64,000 nucleotides of DNA from Moniliella sp. 'wahieum' (Eukaryota): assembly GCA_003971905.1 (NCBI GenBank), contig RSEE01000088.1:124001-188000 (forward strand). The letters run 5' to 3'. How positions within the stretch are numbered: position 1 is the stretch's first letter; each line of letters opens with the position of its first letter. The notes beneath the pieces were generated by a model. It was not told the DNA's origin, made no database searches, and saw nothing but the letters and a program-made list of their open reading frames with translations. Made by a program: the position numbers and the translations under genes. Positions 1 to 29,417 of the stretch are shown in pieces.

Positions 1-2748
1 TCGCCGTCGCCGCCCCGGCCACTGGCACCCAGGTCCGTGGGCGTGGTGGGGAGAGGCGAGCCGCTCGTGTCAAGGGAGAGCTGTTCCACGAGGTGGACAA
101 GTACGTGGCCCGTGTGCGGGGCGGACCAGTACGCATGCGCCTGGGTCCGGCCGGCCTCGTGTTCCTTAGCGAGCATGACCACCACCTTGACCCCTTGTTC
201 CCAGATGGACGTCCAAAACGCATCAAACGTCGCGGGCAACGGCGCCTGCGTCACAATGTACCGTCGTTCACTGCCCCACTCCACGGCGGGTGCGGCAAAG
301 GACGCATTGAGGTAATCGCTACCCGGGTCCAGCGCCGTGCGCGGACAACGCAACCGGACACGCGTATGCTCAAAGGGCCAAATGTTATTGTAACGATTGT
401 CTTGTCCGCGCTCCAGTGCGGCGGCGATGCTAAATGGGAACCAACACCCATCATCGTCCTTTGCCGCGCCGTTGTGGCGTGTCGCAAGGGGTGAAGAGGA
501 AGGTTGCTGGTGTATGCTGGCGTTGGCATTGGAATTGGTGTTGGATGTGGAATTGGAGGTGGAGGAGGTGGAGGAGGCACCGGCCAAGCGCGGATCCGCC
601 ACCGTCTCGCTCAACCGGGCCAAGGTGGCATTGAGCCGAACCTGTTCCTGCCGATCAATGTCGTAAAAGTCATGGGCCAATCTCCAATCCCGTTCCGTCG
701 CCATTGCGTCCTCAGCCCCATTTCCATTCTCATCCCCACCCCCACCTCCACCCCGGTCCCCACTTTCACCCCCACCCGTCTCGGACAGCAGAGGCGGGAC
801 CAACGTTTGCAAAAACCGGGGCAACCGCGCTCGTTCCCACGCCGTCATGGCCGGTACACGCAGCGGTATTACCTCCGTCACCCCCTGGGCCAACTCGCGG
901 TTTTGACGCACATTATCAAAGAACGGATTGGCCGCTGCGGCGGCCAGGATGGTCGTCGTCCCACCGGTCCCAGCCGTGCCACCGGTCCCAACAGCCCCAA
1001 GGTTGCCAAGATTGCCAGTGGTGGTAGAGGAGATACCTGCACTTGATCCTGTCGTGGTTCCTGTGGTGGTGGCTCCTGCTGTGGCGTTTCCTGCTGCGGT
1101 GGTTCCGACTGTGGTGGCGGCGTTGGAGGACGTGGCGCCCCCCTGAACGGTGGTGAGGGTGGTAAATGCCTCGCTGGGCAGCGCGCCTGGTTGAACGAGG
1201 GCCTTGGTACGTGGTGTCGGGCCCAGCGGAGCGAGCGAGGCGGGTCCCGAAGCATACGGCACCTGCCCTGGTTGGGAGGCCAAGGCCGAGGCAAAGGATG
1301 AGGAAGGGGAAGAGGACGGGAGGGTGGTGGAGGAAGAAGCGCTAGGCGTAGGTCCGTCCCGGGCTTGCAGGTGGTGCCAGCCCGCCCGATTGGCCGCTGG
1401 GGTGGGCAAGGAGAGGGAGAAGCTCATAGCGCGTTGGCCGGAATTTAGAGACGGTGCTGCGGGCCTTGGTGGCACGCGCGAGCCGAAAGCCGATGTAGCA
1501 GCAGCAGCAGCAGGCGCAGCCGCCCGTGCCGACAAGGACGACAAGGACGACGATGGCAGCCGGAGCGCGGGCTCAGCGGCTCCCGCCGTATTCCCCGCTG
1601 GAGATGAAGTGGTGAGCGGGGTAATCGCACAGCCGTTGGAAGAGGAGGAAGCGAAGGTAGCAGTGGGCAAGGGGGTACGGGCGACGATGCGCGAGGCGTC
1701 GGGCAGGGCGGCGAGCGCAGCAAAGCCGCCCTTGACAAAGGCCAGTTGGCCCGCAAACGCTTGGTCGGCAAATTTGCGCAGCAAGCCTGCGATGCATGTC
1801 CCGCCACCGCCCAGGCCAGGCCGGCCGGCATCAGACAGTGAGGCCGTCGTCGCATCCAACACGACGATGCGTCGAATGGCGGTGCGCGGAGGCGAAACAG
1901 ACTCGCGCCAGCGATCAAACAGAAGACGTGGGGTGGGGCCCAGCTGGCCCTCGGCATTCCCGTCGGCATCTCCGAGCAACTCGGCGCTGACTTGGTCGAT
2001 GGTCACGCTCCGCCGCTTGAGAAGCGTCGAGGGCGCACATACATTAATGCTGCCACGGAGGCGGGCGGTGCGAAAGGCGTTGGCGGGACGAATGTCAAGG
2101 AGGAGCAGGTCCGAGGGCGGGGAAAGCGGGTGGGTCGAGGGTGACGTCGAATTGGAGGAGGGGGTGGGGAGGGGCAACCATCCTTCAATCAGCTCAGCAG
2201 GCGACAGAGATACAATCCCAGACCGGAACGCGGCCTCGGCCGGGTCGAGGCGGGGCGGCGGGTGGGCGGGGGACTTGGTCCTGGTCATCGGCACGGGCCC
2301 GGGGAGCGGGACGGGGAGCGAGAGGCCGCGGGACATGCGGGCCGAGGGGGGCAGGCTGAGTCGCATCCCGCCCGCGACGGGTCCGCCAATGGCCAGCGCC
2401 GGTGCCGGGGCAGGGGCGGGCTCGGGTGCGGGTGCAGGGGGCGGGTGCAGGTGCAGGGGAGGAGCGGGGGCCGGGGCCTGGGACGGGGAAAGGGCCGGGG
2501 CCGGGGAGGCAGCCGGGGCAAAAAAGCCCCCGGCCTGGGACACACGCTGGGCATTTTCGGCGCCGCCGGGAAGGATGGTGAGGGAGCTGATGTGGGTGTC
2601 GAGCTGGCCGGGGGTGGGTGGGGGCCCGGGCTGGGCGGCGTCGGAGGTGGCGGTGGTGGTGGTGGGGGCAAAGAGGGCGGCCCAGGGATGGGAGGGGTCG
2701 TGTGGCGGAGGCTCGGGGGCGTCGTCGGGGGCGGCAGGGGGGGGGCAT
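1..2748 (-). CDS. Rhodanese-domain protein tyrosine phosphatase (Ptp2/Ptp3/Pyp1-like MAPK phosphatase); 3' end runs off the window
   Basis: My translation of the minus frame shows a rhodanese-like segment (LLLDIRPANAFRTARLRGSINVCAPSTLLKRR, ~2010-2107) and PTP motifs NRYNNIWPFEHTRVRL, DYLNAS and YIVTQAPLPATFDAFW (~210-397) in the same frame. It is absent from the ORF track, consistent with no stop before the window edge. First clean in-frame ATG is at 2336; the likely true ATG at 2748 is offset by a C9 homopolymer. Confidence 0.85.
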
Positions 2749-2928
2749 GGGGGCGGGCGGTGGTGGCGACGGCGGCGACGGAGGCGATGGGCGGCGGCGC
2801 GACCGAGGGAAGGCAGATGGAGAAGCCAGGCTGGATGCGAACGTTGAACATTGCATCTTCCCACTTGGGCTCAGCACTTGCGGCCGCCCACGCACGGCGC
2901 CAGTGCCGGCGCGTGTGCATGACGCACA

Positions 2929-3093: not shown

Positions 3094-5418
3094 CTACTCG
3101 TCCCACGTCGGCAGCCACTGGGCGTAGCGGGCGTGGTGGGCGTCGTCGCCGACAAACTCCCACCCCACCTCGAACGGCGCAGCGGCAAATCCCTCGGCCT
3201 CCGTCGGAGCCTGGAACGCAGAACGGTACGTGTGGAACGCAATCGCAGGCACCAGCCCACGCTTCTCGTCTTCGTCTTGGCCGCCGCCGCCTCCTTCTTG
3301 GCCGGCCGGCTGCGCACCACGTTCTGGTGCCACGCCTGCTCCAGCGGCACGGCCAGATGCACGCAGTACGCCGCCACGCCCATCTCCCGCCCAATCGCCT
3401 GTTCCACATGCCCAGCCACACACACACGCCACTCCCGTCAGTACACAGCCTCCTTCATCTACCATTCGTCGCGCACAAGGGAGAACAGAGAAGGACAAAA
3501 ACGTACTAGGTACAGCGCCCTTGTCGCCTTGTCCCGATTCGTATTGTCAATCACCACGGACTGCCCCTGACTTAGGAAGAGGCGCGTCTGGCGCAGACAC
3601 TTGGCACGCGAGCCCAACCGGTCCTGGTTCAGGTGCACATACCCGCGCGGCGCAAACACCCGACGGTAGTACGACGACTTGCCCGACCCAGGCGCCCCGA
3701 CAAACACGACCAGTTGTGGCGCCTGAGACGCCTCCTTCGTCTCCGCCTCGCTCGCGCCGTCCTTGTTATCCTTGCCGTCCTTGGAGGCGGAGGGGGGATT
3801 CAAAATCCACGGCGGGACGGCCTCAGGGCGAGGCTGAGTTTGAGCAAGGGCCAGCGCCGTGCGTGCGTCAAACCCACGCAACGTCATGCCTTCTTCCTCC
3901 ACTGCCGGGCCTTGAGTCTGGTCCAAAAAGTACGCTTCAGGGGTGAAAAAGCGCAGGCCGGCGTTCAATGCAAACTTGCGATCCGTGTCCCGCACATCGG
4001 CCGCGACACGGGTACGGTGGGTGCTGTGGACATATGCCTTTCGTCCGGCCAAGTCGCCCACAAAATAGGATTGCAACGCTGGCGGTGCGTTACCACACAC
4101 TGCGACCTGCGAGCGCGCTTGGCCCAGCGGCTGGATCCCTGCTTCTCCATGTCTTTCTCCTCCTTCGTTTGTGATCTTTGTTTCCGGATGGTGCATGGCT
4201 TTGCCCATCTCTGGGCCCTTGGCGTTGTCGGGCGAGGCGGCCCAAATGTGGGTGAGGAGGTAGTGCCACATGCCGGGTTGTGGCTTGCGGAATTCATCCT
4301 TGGCCAAGCTGGCGAACACGTACGCTGGTACGCCCAAGCCGTGCACAATGTGACGTACTTTTTTCTTCCACACCTCAAGCGCGGGCGACAAGGGGGGTGG
4401 GCCGCCCCGCCGCCCACAGGCAGACGGGACGAACGCGACGACCCAAAGGAAAGGGAAGTTTGCGAGGAACGAGACGAGCCAGAAGAACGGGAGGCAGGGG
4501 TAGAACCGCGAGGCGGTTTTTGCAGTTGGTTGGAACAGAGGACAATAATCTGTCCTTGCGCATACGCCGCTTGCACTTTGCGCACCACGCTCGGGTACAG
4601 AAACACAAAGTCAAACTCATCGGTCGGATTGGGAAAGCGCTGCACCGATGGAAAACGTCGGTAGGTAGAGTAGGTCGATAGGTAGAACAAAGAGGGTAGG
4701 TAGCATCCCGCACACCGTCTAGTCAGCCAACAATGTTTCTCCTTTCCACTGTCCCCTTTCCAGCTGGCCAGCTTCCCAGTTCAAAAGGGTTCCCCACCGG
4801 GAGGGGGCAGGAGGGTGGGACACCTATCTCGCAACGCCTTCCCTTTGGGAGGTGTTTGCTTCTGGGAGACAATTGAGATGGGAGGGGGTAGAGGGGACAT
4901 ACCTTATTCTCCTTTTTGCCAGCGGCCGGCTTAGGTTTGACCAAGGTCCAGTCCAGATCAAATAGCGCAAACTGGACCAAGGGGCGCTCGGCCCCCGGTT
5001 GCTTCTCATTCTCCGTCGCCGTCTCTTCATCTTTTGGCGTCTCCGCCGTTTCCTCCTCCTCCTCGGCCGTGTCTTCCTTGTCCTTGGCCTTCTGCTCCTT
5101 CACCTGCTCCTGCTCGTTCTTCTCCGTCTCCTCGTCATTCTGCTTCTGCTTCTGCACCAACAACGCCAACGCCTTCTCCGCCGGCTGGCCCACCTGGCCT
5201 ACCAACAGCGTGCCTCTTGGCCCGGCCGTACGCCAGGCGGTCGTCATTGACCCACCAAACCACCGCGTGCTCTCGCTCTGACTCTTGGGCCCACTCGCGG
5301 GTCGTGCCGAGGCAGGCGGCGAGTGCGAACGCGAGCGCTTGTCGTCAGTGTCGACGGGGCTGGTGCTGCGGAGGTGGGAGAATTTGCGTTTGGTGCCAGT
5401 GGGGTGCGGAGGCGGCAT
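3094..5418 (-). CDS. PNK1: Bifunctional polynucleotide 3'-phosphatase/5'-kinase (PNKP/Pnk1)
   Basis: HAD motifs FDLDWTL, FRKPQPGMW, FVGDLAGR and DTDRKFALNAGLRFFTPEAYF; kinase P-loop GAPGSGKS, then NQDRL and VVIDNTN. Introns ~4640-4902 and ~3399-3506. Apparent frameshifts near 4395 and 3300. Confidence 0.88.
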
Positions 5419-26799: not shown

Positions 26800-29417
26800 T
26801 CAAACCGGGTGCTGTTGCTCCAGTTGGTTGAGCTGAATCCGGCCTTTGCTCCAGTGCTCGTTGCCCGCTATAAAATCGCCGCGGACGACCTTGCCACGAC
26901 GAAGGGTAACTTGGCGAGCGGCATCCTCAAACCGAATGTACACACCTTCGCGCCGAGCCGGGCCAAACGCACAACGCTCCTCGATCCACTGCAGGACCTG
27001 GGCGCGACGGACCTCGGTGCACTGGGTTACCAAGGGAACTTGGTGGATCCCTGTGCCTTGCAATGCCGAAGCGAGCACTTGGCGCGAAACGAACTTCCCC
27101 GTCAGCCGGTCCAACAAGTCAAACGCCAAGAAACGGTCGGGCAACTGGGTGTATGCAATGGAGTGGGTCGCAACAAGCCATTCACCATAGAGAATGTAGC
27201 GTTCCAAGAACTGTGGGTCGCGGGCCAAGAGCGCGGTGAGAGCATCGGCATGCTGTTCGAGCCACATGGGCAACGACTTGAACTGCGCATGCTCGGATCC
27301 GCAAATCCAATGACTGCGATTTTGAACGCGCAACGTACCGTGCGCATCGAGGCTGATGCCCATGTTGGCGCCGTCCATTTTTTCCTCAATGGTCAAGGTA
27401 CCGTGCAGCACGTCAAATCCTTCCAGCACCTCATCGTCGTCCGCCACGGCCCCCAAGTTGAGCAGGTGCGGGGTACGCGGGAACTTGAGTAACGGTACCG
27501 GTGGCGTGAGCAACAGTACCGCTTCCTTGGCCGCAGCAAAGCTCGACACAACCAACAAATGATCCCACGGTTCGTCGTGCAGCGTGGGCACGTCCATGGT
27601 ACGATCGAAGTGGTGTACAGCATGTGCACCTGTGCCAGCTCGGATGGTAGGATGGTTGAGACGCATGTTGACGCGTTGTTGGCACAATTCTTTATCGTAC
27701 TCAAAGTACACACCACCGTTTGCCGACCGTTTGGGACCAAACTGAGCCAATAGGCGCGGTCCGCGCGACTGGGATTGCAGCGATCTAAAATGATGAGGGT
27801 ATCGTTCGGTTGCGCCCGGCCCACTTGGTTTTCCGAGGCAGAGCGCCCGGCTTCATCTTGGTTGATGATCAATGTTTTGCCCCTTCGTTTGGCAATTGCA
27901 TTGGCTAACCAGCTCTTCCCTGACCCGGGCTTGCCAACCAGGATGAGTACCGTGGGGAAGGAGGTGGTAAGGGCCGCTGTGGGATGAGCGCGCGAGCAAA
28001 TGCGAAGCGAAGAAACTGGTTCTGCCAAAGGCTCGTTTCGGTACGCCTCTTTCCACCGATGCGAAACAAAGGCGGGGACAAAGCGTTCTTGATCTTGGCT
28101 TTCGAGCGAACGAGGACGAATCTGTCGTAGAAGGTTGATCGCCGTTTTACCATCCAACAGGGGCTCGAGCGATGGCGATGACAGTGTCTGCCCGCTCTCG
28201 TGACCTTGACCGAGCATGGCGATCAAACATGCCAACACGGTTCCGGCGCGCCCGACGCCCCCGCCACAATGAACCAGCCATACGCCGCCAGCCTGGACAT
28301 GGGATAGGACCGCGTCCATCTCGCCGAGGGAAGGAGTGCCGTAGTTGGCAATGGGGATATAAATGTGGCGGATGGGCTTGAATGCAAACCAGGCTGGGTC
28401 CAACGGTTCTTCCTTAGTCAAGGTAAGTATGTGCGTGAAACCCATTCGCACCAACTGATCCACATCCTCCTTGCTTCGTGGGGTAGACATGCCCGCCACA
28501 CGACCCGGGTAGACCCAGGAAAAGAAGCGAGGTAGTTGGTACCCCAGATACCTGGTGCGGTCCCTCGACTCGGTCCGGGCGGGCCAGAGGGACGGGGCAA
28601 ACATGGCATCCAAATCGTGTGGCCAGGGCTGCAGAACGTACTGCCGCAAATCGGAGGGGATGCGATCGTCCTCGGCGGCGGTGACAAGTGGTCCGTAGGA
28701 AATTTGGTTGGCCACTTTACCGATCCGACGATGGGCCAAAGGGAGCAAGCTAGGATCATGGCGAGCCGCCTGGGCGTACGCCAGCGCGGCCAACTTGGCG
28801 TTCGATCCAGCAAGCGCCGCATCGCCCACGCGGACGTATCCCTTGGCTGACTCGGGATCGAGAAGCACCATGGCTCCCGCCACGCGCAGGGACATGGTCC
28901 AATCGTCCTGCAGCGCAACACACAGATGGTCAAGGGCAGACATGCTGAGCACCTGTTGCGGGCCTGGCTGGAGTAGGGGATCCAAGTGCCCTGTGGTGCG
29001 GAAAGAAGTGAGGACGGACTTGTCGAGGGCATGGTCGTCGGTGGTGCTAAGCGTTATGTGGTAGGCTTTGCGACCAAGACCAAGCGAGGTGCGCCATGCA
29101 TCGGCATGGTTCCATACCACGGGCAGCCATCGCACCCCGGTCTTGCTGGTCATGGGGGGCAAGACGTAGATGTGGTTGGTGGGCACGGGGATGTCGTGGG
29201 GCAAGGGCAAGGGGAGGGTGCGCGAGGGGGAGCGGTGCGAGCGCAGCTGCTTGCACTCGGCCGCGGTGAGGAGGGTGATGTGGAGCGGATGGGACGGCAG
29301 CGGTGTGCCGGGGGGGCAGACGGCGTGGAGAGCCGCAGCGAGGCCGTCGCCGGTGAGAGCGATCGTGCCGCGGTACTCGGCTAACGTCGCAGGCGGGAGG
29401 AGCTGGACGACAGACAT
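26800..29417 (-). CDS. Multidomain RNA-repair enzyme: 2H phosphoesterase + TPR-like repeat + CX5R phosphatase + P-loop polynucleotide kinase + ATP-dependent RNA ligase ('Swiss-army-knife' type), ~872 aa
   Basis: Two HxT motifs (HITL at 29271-29282 and 29049-29060); TPR-like AKGYVRVGDAALAGSNAKLAALAYAQAARHDP; VHCGGGVGRAGT (~28240-28274); GKPGSGKS (27912-27935), then INQDE and ILDRCN; ligase motifs EEKMDGAN (27364-27387), LYGEW, FLAFDL, EGVYIR, RGKVVR. ORFs 27393-29651 and 26800-27750 are joined by one frameshift near 27715, inside the kinase domain. Confidence 0.85.

Follow-up and report, generated by a model that had tools for sequence, protein, structure and literature searches.

A predicted Swiss Army Knife RNA repair gene carrying a one-base frameshift in Moniliella sp. 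'wahieum'

Can a single fungal protein carry every activity that is needed to mend broken RNA whose ends are 2',3'-cyclic-phosphate and 5'-OH, and does the copy of its gene described here still encode all of them? The question is raised by a gene on the minus strand of a 64,000-nucleotide stretch of Moniliella sp. 'wahieum' (assembly GCA_003971905.1, contig RSEE01000088.1, positions 124,001 to 188,000), which we call the window. Our results indicate that the locus probably encodes a Swiss Army Knife (SAK) protein equipped with all of these activities, in a copy that is either mis-assembled or recently inactivated. Positions 29417..26800 code for ~872 amino acids in ~872 codons spread over two reading frames, and from the N to the C terminus the modules are a 2H phosphoesterase, a short helical repeat, a Cys-phosphatase, a P-loop polynucleotide kinase and an ATP-dependent RNA ligase. 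An earlier note on this DNA had described the five modules in this order with intact catalytic residues; everything that it listed is present at that place on the minus strand, and translation placed all the motifs that it quoted at exact coordinates. The features are given below in window coordinates, together with expectation values (E) or, for predicted structure, the predicted local distance difference test score (pLDDT).

26800..29417, minus strand: whole SAK gene, from the ATG (29417-29415) to the stop codon (26802-26800), in two frames with a one-base frameshift
28968..29417, minus strand: 2H phosphoesterase module, residues 1-150 (PF22547, 2H-SAK; 44.1 bits against a cut-off of 27)
29282-29274 and 29060-29052, minus strand: the HxT motifs H46-I-T48 and H120-I-T122, from the translation
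28716..28943, minus strand: helical repeat, residues 159-234, with five predicted helices (159-168, 173-186, 191-203, 207-220 and 222-234; pLDDT 94-98)
28077..28532, minus strand: Cys-phosphatase of the PTP/DSP fold, residues 296-447 (PF22784, PTP-SAK; E 8.4e-48)
28271-28248, 28346-28344 and 28103-28101, minus strand: phosphatase P-loop HCGGGVGR, Asn358 and Glu439, from the translation
27499..27962, minus strand: P-loop polynucleotide kinase, split by the frameshift (family profile against PDB)
27935-27912, 27857-27855 and 27785-27774, minus strand: kinase motif GKPGSGKS, D521 and DRCN, from the translation
27708..27714, minus strand: frameshift site, one base short in a GGTGGTGTG run; base 27711 has to be read twice to hold the frame
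26815..27492, minus strand: nucleotidyltransferase domain of the RNA ligase (PF09414; E 6.5e-32)
27486-27463, 27387-27364 and 27381-27379, minus strand: the invariant ligase start KFPRTPHL, EEKMDGAN and the motif I lysine K115, from the translation

The Pfam families PF22547 (2H-SAK), PF22784 (PTP-SAK), AAA_33 and PF09414 (RNA_ligase) match the product in the same order as the modules and, together with the conserved motifs, bear out the five-module layout. PTP-SAK (E 8.4e-48), RNA_ligase (E 6.5e-32) and 2H-SAK (E 3e-11) exceed the gathering cut-offs, and AAA_33 stays below its own (21.7 bits against 27; E 2.7e-4) because the frameshift splits the kinase in two. An NCBIfam search with the gene product gave sub-threshold matches only, and PADLOC, run on both halves of the protein, gave none. 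The very names of the two SAK-specific models confirm the family that the earlier note had suggested: judged by its sequence, the locus is a member of the known, computationally predicted SAK family, which is already represented in Pfam. Burroughs and Aravind (2016; Nucleic Acids Res 44:8525) reportedly described the Swiss Army Knife RNA repair proteins. The AlphaFold model of a 566-amino-acid part of the protein has a pLDDT of 91.1 and a predicted template modelling score of 0.83, and in it the 2H, helical and phosphatase modules are predicted to form one rigid body, with residues 466-484 as a disordered linker to the kinase-ligase part.

Both HxT motifs of the N-terminal module are conserved, the first in 30 of the 32 alignment rows covering the region and the second in 32 of 33, as read by eye from the alignment after N-terminally truncated rows had been dropped. 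In the model they are placed in beta strands of two beta-beta-alpha-beta-alpha halves (pLDDT >90), so that the protein has the two HxT/S motifs on paired strands that mark the 2H superfamily. The earlier note had allowed that the N terminus might turn out not to be a 2H fold, and the match to PF22547 argues against this. When SAK families were excluded, the nearest language-model neighbours of the N-terminal 150 amino acids were tRNA_lig_CPD clusters, i.e. CPD domains of the Trl1 type, at 0.95 and 0.94, which is a lead rather than a test. The helical repeat that follows corresponds to what had been called a TPR-like helix pair, the weakest item in the earlier description. Its helical nature holds, with five confidently modelled helices; its relation to TPR does not find the same support, as no Pfam TPR family matches at E<=1 and the language-model neighbours in the Atlas include TPR clusters at 0.79 only, below the usable level. 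From the model, the repeat is possibly TPR-like.

The C-terminal domain decides whether such a protein could seal RNA as well as heal its ends. Downstream of EEKMDGAN, the blocks YGEW, FLAFD, REGVYIR and RRGKVVRGD are present, which we take to be the later nucleotidyltransferase motifs of the standard nomenclature. K115, D117 and G118 do not vary across all 52 alignment rows, nor does the QNRS block. The ligase model has a pLDDT of 91.7, and Foldseek ranks it closest to the Naegleria RNA ligase Rnl5 (E 1.8e-8), T4 Rnl2 (2.2e-7), archaeal Rnl3 (9e-7) and REL1 (1.5e-6), followed in order by the ligase domain of Trl1 (1.9e-6 to 2.7e-5), Rnl1 and, at 3e-4 or worse, DNA ligases. With a motif I of the form KxDGxN, the later motifs and an RNA-ligase-type fold, the domain has what is expected of an ATP-dependent RNA ligase, and in its predicted structure it folds like the Rnl5 and Rnl2 RNA ligases rather than like Trl1 or DNA ligases.

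The kinase tells a similar story. No variation is seen in its Walker A motif (GKPGSGKS), in the Asp after strand 2 (D521) or in the lid arginines, which are R17 and R21 in second-frame numbering. When the family profile was compared with PDB, the best match overall was the Rhizopus RNA 5'-OH kinase RazKIN (9D8A, E 4.8e-29), with 9DRZ closely similar (2.3e-27); PNKP of mammals (4e-15) and the Pnkp kinase of Clostridium (2e-12) came far behind. The two lid arginines align with Arg99 and Arg103 of RazKIN, which contact GDP according to the accessible text of PMC11571804. The same text describes RazKIN as a stand-alone Mucorales RNA 5'-OH kinase. Its homologue from Mucor, MciKIN, complements tRNA splicing in yeast and is active on 5'-OH RNA in vitro, and the Mucorales RNA kinases are stated to phosphorylate such RNA and to favour GTP. 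Searches of PDB with short pieces, made to lengthen the VHZ and RazKIN alignments, gave nothing useful, and the RazKIN alignments end before the guanine-binding loop. The sequence similarity suggests that the SAK kinase and the Mucorales tRNA-splicing kinases are of common origin, a relationship that is not discussed in the accessible part of PMC11571804.

RazKIN-type kinases also phosphorylate DNA ends in vitro (PMC11571804, accessible text), and polynucleotide kinases and nucleotidyltransferase ligases serve DNA repair as well as RNA repair. It could be asked whether the protein acts in DNA end processing and has a DNA ligase as its C-terminal domain, the latter being an outcome for which the earlier note had left room. 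We consider this hardly credible. In the fold search DNA ligases fall below all of the RNA ligase families, the fold returned being RNA-ligase-like, and the Pfam model is RNA_ligase; a 2H cyclic phosphodiesterase would have no DNA substrate; and the window already contains a canonical DNA-repair PNKP with PNK3P and AAA_33 domains at 3462-4610.

What, then, would the Cys-phosphatase remove? The HCX5R(S/T) P-loop on a PTP fold is clearly present: HCGGGVGRAGT is invariant, with H383, C384 and R390 found in 54 of 54 rows. The best Foldseek match is VHZ/DUSP23 (4erc, E 4.3e-9, template modelling (TM) score 0.84, target-normalised; 2img, TM 0.85), and the best fold and sequence matches taken together are VHZ/DUSP23, TkPTP, ShufPTP and SsoPTP. 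At position 358, which stands in the same column as D65 of VHZ and the loop Asp of SsoPTP, 51 of the 54 rows carry Asn and the other three Asp. E439 is present in all 54, and the profile alignment to 4erc pairs it with E134 of VHZ. In VHZ, the remote Glu134 is the primary general acid and Asp65 is subsidiary, and TkPTP is named as a similar dual-general-acid enzyme, and the title of a reference listed there says so of SsoPTP as well (PMC9038691, accessible part). By its sequence the SAK phosphatase probably remains a competent monoesterase that relies on Glu439. A sister Pfam family, PTP-NADK, in which the domain is fused to an NAD kinase, scores 18.9 bits here, below its cut-off, and is a precomputed match on many homologues.

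The general-acid substitution nonetheless leaves room for another job within RNA repair. The phosphatase might trim 5'-tri- or diphosphates to monophosphates, as baculovirus and PIR1-type enzymes do, or, once a Trl1-like ligation has taken place, it might take the 2'-phosphate off the junction. Members of the PTP fold acting on phosphoanhydrides do so without the WPD acid, MCE1 and the PFA-DSPs being examples (PMC9038691, accessible part), which fits the Asn at position 358, and the baculovirus RNA 5'-phosphatase 1yn9 is among the fold matches (E 9.2e-5). However, the best matches are the dual-acid enzymes VHZ, TkPTP and SsoPTP, with the VHZ Glu aligned to the invariant E439; the 5' end is already served by the kinase; and the PTP-NADK fusion would point to ribose 2'-phosphates as the substrate class. 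We therefore regard a different job for the phosphatase as unlikely, and prefer a phosphatase that would act on the phosphate left by the 2H module.

The second half of our question concerns the integrity of the gene. The frame break that the earlier note had placed near 27715 is real, one base being short at 27708-27714. It was located by tblastn of five full-length homologues against the window. With every homologue, a piece in frame -3 ends at 27708-27738 and a piece in frame -2 begins at 27711-27714; base 27711 is common to both, frame -3 being followed down to ~27711 and frame -2 from there onward. For three of the five the two pieces abut without loss of a residue (P0004, 478/478; P0010, 573/573; P0007, 604/603), and the alignments of P0003 and P0009 end 4 and 7 residues before the frame junction. 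From about residue 3 to the last 10 residues the homologue alignments contain no intron-sized gaps. The break thus bears, in its sequence, the signature of a single base lost from the GGTGGTGTG run. The missing base lies inside the kinase and the ligase is therefore out of frame, so that the assembled copy would give a truncated kinase and no ligase unless the missing base is an assembly error.

Other explanations of the break fare less well. The only GT..AG pair that would restore the frame as an intron encloses 38 nucleotides (27737-27700) and would cost 13 residues, among them VYFEY, a strand kept in the consensus of the family; this stretch is also very short, shows no branch-site-like sequence by eye, and is at odds with the three homologues whose pieces abut without a missing residue. 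We therefore reject an intron. Immediately upstream of the frameshift site there is an imperfect 11-bp tandem direct repeat (27733-27723 and 27722-27712, minus strand), and the region is repeat-rich and slippage-prone. Deleting one copy of the repeat restores the frame and yields a protein 4 residues shorter at that place than every homologue, which makes an 11-bp duplication, on sequence comparison, less likely as the lesion than the loss of one base. Programmed -1 frameshifting was rejected by inference only, the site having no canonical slippery heptamer.

This leaves a more serious rival, namely that the copy is a genuine pseudogene, or a null allele specific to the strain, which would make only the 2H-helical-phosphatase part, a dead kinase stump and an out-of-frame tail, and repair nothing. 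There is no ambiguity about the frame break, and splicing could not remove it. Furthermore, long open reading frames without a break are seen in the other conserved genes that were inspected in the window (fumarase, 512 amino acids; eEF1A, 469; uS9, 154; fibrillarin, 280; ARM-repeat protein, 465), and therefore the assembly is not riddled with insertions and deletions. Patchy, conflict-type genes are also often lost. Against this, the gene shows no second lesion: 159 of the 162 family positions conserved at >=90% are kept (80/82 and 79/80), ~303 codons past the break remain open, and identity to the homologues does not drop there, being 55-57% before and 58-59% after the break in tblastn. In addition, the lost base falls in a short G-rich repeat, where sequencing and replication both slip. 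We give the null allele a substantial chance, somewhat short of even. The copy is therefore either mis-assembled or a very recently inactivated allele.

The relatives of the gene are numerous. The window protein aligns end to end with homologues of 800-950 amino acids at 55-59% identity. A word-indexed protein search returned 64 relatives, 30 of which carry all four Pfam families at 800-950 amino acids; the closest one is 55-57% identical, and therefore the protein itself is absent from the searched collection. Named relatives come from basidiomycete yeasts and smut-like fungi (Acaromyces, Ceraceosorus, Kockovaella, Vanrija, Cryptococcus, Tilletia and Sporobolomyces), from ascomycetes (Elsinoe, Bisporella, Tuber and Choiromyces), and from the chytrid Geranomyces, the moss Ceratodon and the green alga Trebouxia. 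At E<=1e-3, a profile built from 54 family sequences and searched against 1.84 billion representatives retrieved 20177 proteins, with 5405 left at E<=1e-10 and 991 cluster representatives at E<=1e-30; the top 150 all have E<=1e-137, and the majority cover the full profile. Forms of 650-720 amino acids that seem to have no 2H domain start at an internal Met inside the helical repeat; we take them for incomplete gene calls from metagenome contigs and see no separate architecture in them. Proteins of 1000-1100 amino acids (P0251, P0260, P0263, P0301, P0313, P0323 and P0324) match the profile from about position 255 and have ~320-370 unmatched N-terminal residues; these may be SAK variants in which another N-terminal module replaces the 2H and helical parts.

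Further support comes from beyond the eukaryotes. With the ligase alignment as query, 74 loci at 31-43% identity were found in genomes of bacteria and archaea, and gene contexts were counted over all of them with local profiles built from Pfam- and PADLOC-annotated examples. Most of the loci encode stand-alone ligases of ~225-250 amino acids. An ABC-type ATPase gene lies upstream on the same strand in 57 of the 74 loci, and in 55 a protein of ~175 amino acids is encoded between it and the ligase, the stop and start codons often overlapping. The ATPase matches the PADLOC models of HEC-03 at E 1e-127 to 1e-131, the small protein at 1e-22 to 1e-31. HEC-03 is a validated phage defence of two genes, for an ABC ATPase and a VapC-like PIN protein, according to the accessible text of the preprint (bioRxiv 10.1101/2024.01.29.577857), in which the term 'RNA ligase' was not found. 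The naming of the two HEC-03 proteins as A and B in PADLOC runs opposite to that of the preprint. Trios of this HEC-03-like kind with a ligase of ~228 amino acids occur in L004-L067 and others (e.g. L007:4114-6672, L025:4107-6678 and L060:4062-6669), and at least two of the trios are followed by a gene for a DEAD/RecQ-like helicase of ~700 amino acids (L025:6748-8865 and L029:6696-8774, plus strand). The ligase might reseal RNA that the PIN effector has cut.

Other bacterial contexts come closer to the SAK protein itself. A gene for an HD-phosphohydrolase/AAA_33 kinase fusion adjoins the ligase gene in nine of the 74 loci and a LigT 2H phosphoesterase gene in one, and in one more, L011, the ligase is fused to a kinase with the SAK-type DRCN and HET/HPT motifs. 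In several of the remaining loci the ligase gene is found at the edge of its contig. The L011 gene (L011:5503-7410, plus strand), from a metagenome-assembled genome of Desulfobacteraceae, encodes 635 amino acids, in which a weakly TPR-like N terminus is followed by a ligase and then by a kinase with DRCN and lid motifs, both of the SAK type. A quick maximum-likelihood tree was made for 89 ligase domains, and in it the 15 SAK ligases of eukaryotes cluster with L011, itself a long branch, with a Shimodaira-Hasegawa-like approximate likelihood ratio support of 99; the Myxococcota ligases linked to HD-kinase fusions come next (support 88), and the HEC-03-linked ligases occupy the other side of the tree. 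That this ligase clade repeatedly lies beside end-healing enzymes or RNA-cutting effectors supports a role in RNA repair independently of any domain name.

It might also be argued that the role is a housekeeping one, in which the protein would replace or back up Trl1 as the ligase of tRNA or HAC1-type splicing and would not be a damage or conflict module. The kinase is most like those of Mucorales, whose Mucor member acts in tRNA splicing, and the gene sits among core genes such as fumarase, uS9 and eEF1A. However, the named homologues have a scattered occurrence, in a small number of basidiomycete yeasts and some ascomycetes, besides a moss, an alga and a chytrid; the ligase does not resemble that of Trl1; the frameshift, if real, would not be tolerated in an essential gene; and 55-57 of the 74 bacterial ligase relatives are tied to a phage-defence RNase pair. 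A housekeeping role therefore appears quite improbable to us, and we return to the repair of broken RNA.

How might such repair proceed? In a putative scheme whose order of steps we infer, as we do the nucleotide donor, and whose chemistry is taken from the domain families to which the modules are shown to belong, the 2H domain would first open the cyclic phosphate to a monoester, most likely a 2'-phosphate by analogy with the CPD domain of Trl1. The VHZ-like Cys-phosphatase might then strip this phosphate by way of a phospho-enzyme on Cys384, with Glu439 and not the loop Asp as the proton donor, the RazKIN-like P-loop kinase would phosphorylate the 5'-OH, and the Rnl5/Rnl2-like ligase, adenylylated on Lys115, could join the 3'-OH to the 5'-phosphate as an ordinary phosphodiester. 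The clean 3'-5' junction made without Tpt1 and the defence against ribotoxins, both proposed in the earlier note, would be possible outcomes.

Several points weigh against a complete repair enzyme at this locus. The assembled sequence has no uninterrupted frame for the SAK gene. The ligase half gave no match in a sequence search of PDB, and its domain is bare, ending ~25 residues past motif V without the OB or C-terminal accessory domain of Rnl5 and Rnl2. Foldseek with the whole 566-amino-acid model gave no independent support for the 2H fold, as the 45 matches listed among ranks 1-50 were all phosphatases, with no 2H entry among them. The general-acid loop position, ~26 residues before the catalytic Cys, holds Asn in place of Asp, so that the substrate and leaving group of the phosphatase are uncertain, and the phosphate isomer that the 2H domain would leave is drawn from analogy. 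Finally, a literature search, with most subscription journals outside its coverage, found no experimental or biochemical study of any SAK protein, in line with the earlier note, which knew of none. We nevertheless consider that the locus probably specifies the full set of activities.

It would be tempting to join these threads into a single account, in which one chain repairs RNA without Tpt1, its phosphatase is a VHZ-like RNA ribose 2'-phosphatase with a remote Glu, and a mobile kinase-ligase pair leads on to the Mucorales kinase, with the bacterial ligase accompanying HEC-03 and perhaps resealing its cuts. We offer this joint account only tentatively. The PTP fold is not known to have RNA ribose 2'-phosphatase activity.

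By itself, the locus is one more, broken, member of a family that was predicted in 2016 and is modelled in Pfam. It is more useful as a pointer: the phosphatase probably uses a VHZ-type Glu over the loop Asp, the kinase is closely related to experimentally proven RNA kinases of Mucorales, and the ligase belongs to a compact clade of ~225 amino acids whose bacterial members are wired to RNA-cutting defence systems. The Glu acid, the kinship with RazKIN and the bacterial contexts are additions to a known family and leave its category unchanged. If clean junctions are indeed made without Tpt1, the protein would be a compact tool for RNA end repair and a second, independent fungal answer to cyclic-phosphate breaks.

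The surroundings of the gene can be described briefly. The window is eukaryotic and resembles basidiomycete DNA. Neighbouring genes code for fumarase, the ribosomal protein uS9, eEF1A, an ARM-repeat protein that is importin-alpha-like, and choline kinase. Among fumarases, the best match is that of Acaromyces ingoldii, at 82% identity, with Violaceomyces, Ceraceosorus and Tilletia ranked next. The open reading frame at 3462-4610 (minus strand), which combines PNK3P, a HAD 3'-phosphatase, with AAA_33 as in canonical PNKP-type DNA end-processing enzymes, lies 22 kb from the SAK gene. A long frame at 3-2870 (minus strand), running off the end of the window, encodes a classical Y_phosphatase (E 8.8e-24) unrelated to the SAK phosphatase.

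How does the protein compare with systems that are already known? Relative to other SAK proteins, it has the five modules in identical order and matches both SAK-specific Pfam models above threshold; the one-base frameshift and an identity of just 55-57% to the closest relative are the only differences, and neither is a difference of kind. Compared with VHZ/DUSP23, TkPTP and SsoPTP, the SAK phosphatase conserves the remote general-acid Glu, whereas its loop Asp is Asn in 51 of 54 members, an 18-residue insert follows the P-loop helix, and the module sits in an RNA repair protein, its substrate presumably being a nucleic-acid phosphate. The kinase shares with RazKIN, MciKIN and LcoKIN (9D8A, 9DRZ) the P-loop, QD...SR.ACE, DRCN and the lid C..R...R..HPT over ~140 aligned residues, but those are single-domain tRNA-splicing enzymes of ~165-210 amino acids, and the SAK kinase is one of five modules. 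Naegleria gruberi Rnl5 and T4 RNA ligase 2 are the best structural matches of the ligase, with the KxDGxN motif I and later motifs in common; identity is only 14-18% and the TM score only 0.41-0.49, and their N- or C-terminal accessory domains are absent from the SAK ligase.

The bacterial pairings with HD/AAA_33, LigT or a fused kinase have ligases 34-43% identical to that of the SAK protein, including the N-terminal KFPRTPHL-type motif, and they are alike in combining healing with sealing. They differ in that the functions are carried on separate genes, that the phosphoesterase is HD or LigT as against the 2H and Cys-phosphatase of SAK, and that the HD-fusion kinases have the common form DATN where SAK has DRCN. 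Trl1, the fungal and plant tRNA ligase that works with Tpt1 and requires a 2'-phosphate for sealing, is likewise a single chain with a 2H domain, a P-loop RNA 5'-kinase and an ATP-dependent ligase. The Pfam domain order upholds the contrast drawn in the earlier note: the order LIG-KIN-CPD of Trl1 is reversed in SAK, which adds a Cys-phosphatase and a helical repeat and is not of the Trl1 type, while the L011 protein shows a like LIG-KIN order. No Trl1 kinase entry appears among the PDB profile matches at E<=1e-6, and the Pfam models of Trl1 are not matched by the window protein. In its fold, too, the SAK ligase is closer to Rnl5 and Rnl2, the Trl1 ligase domain ranking below Rnl5, Rnl2, Rnl3 and REL1.

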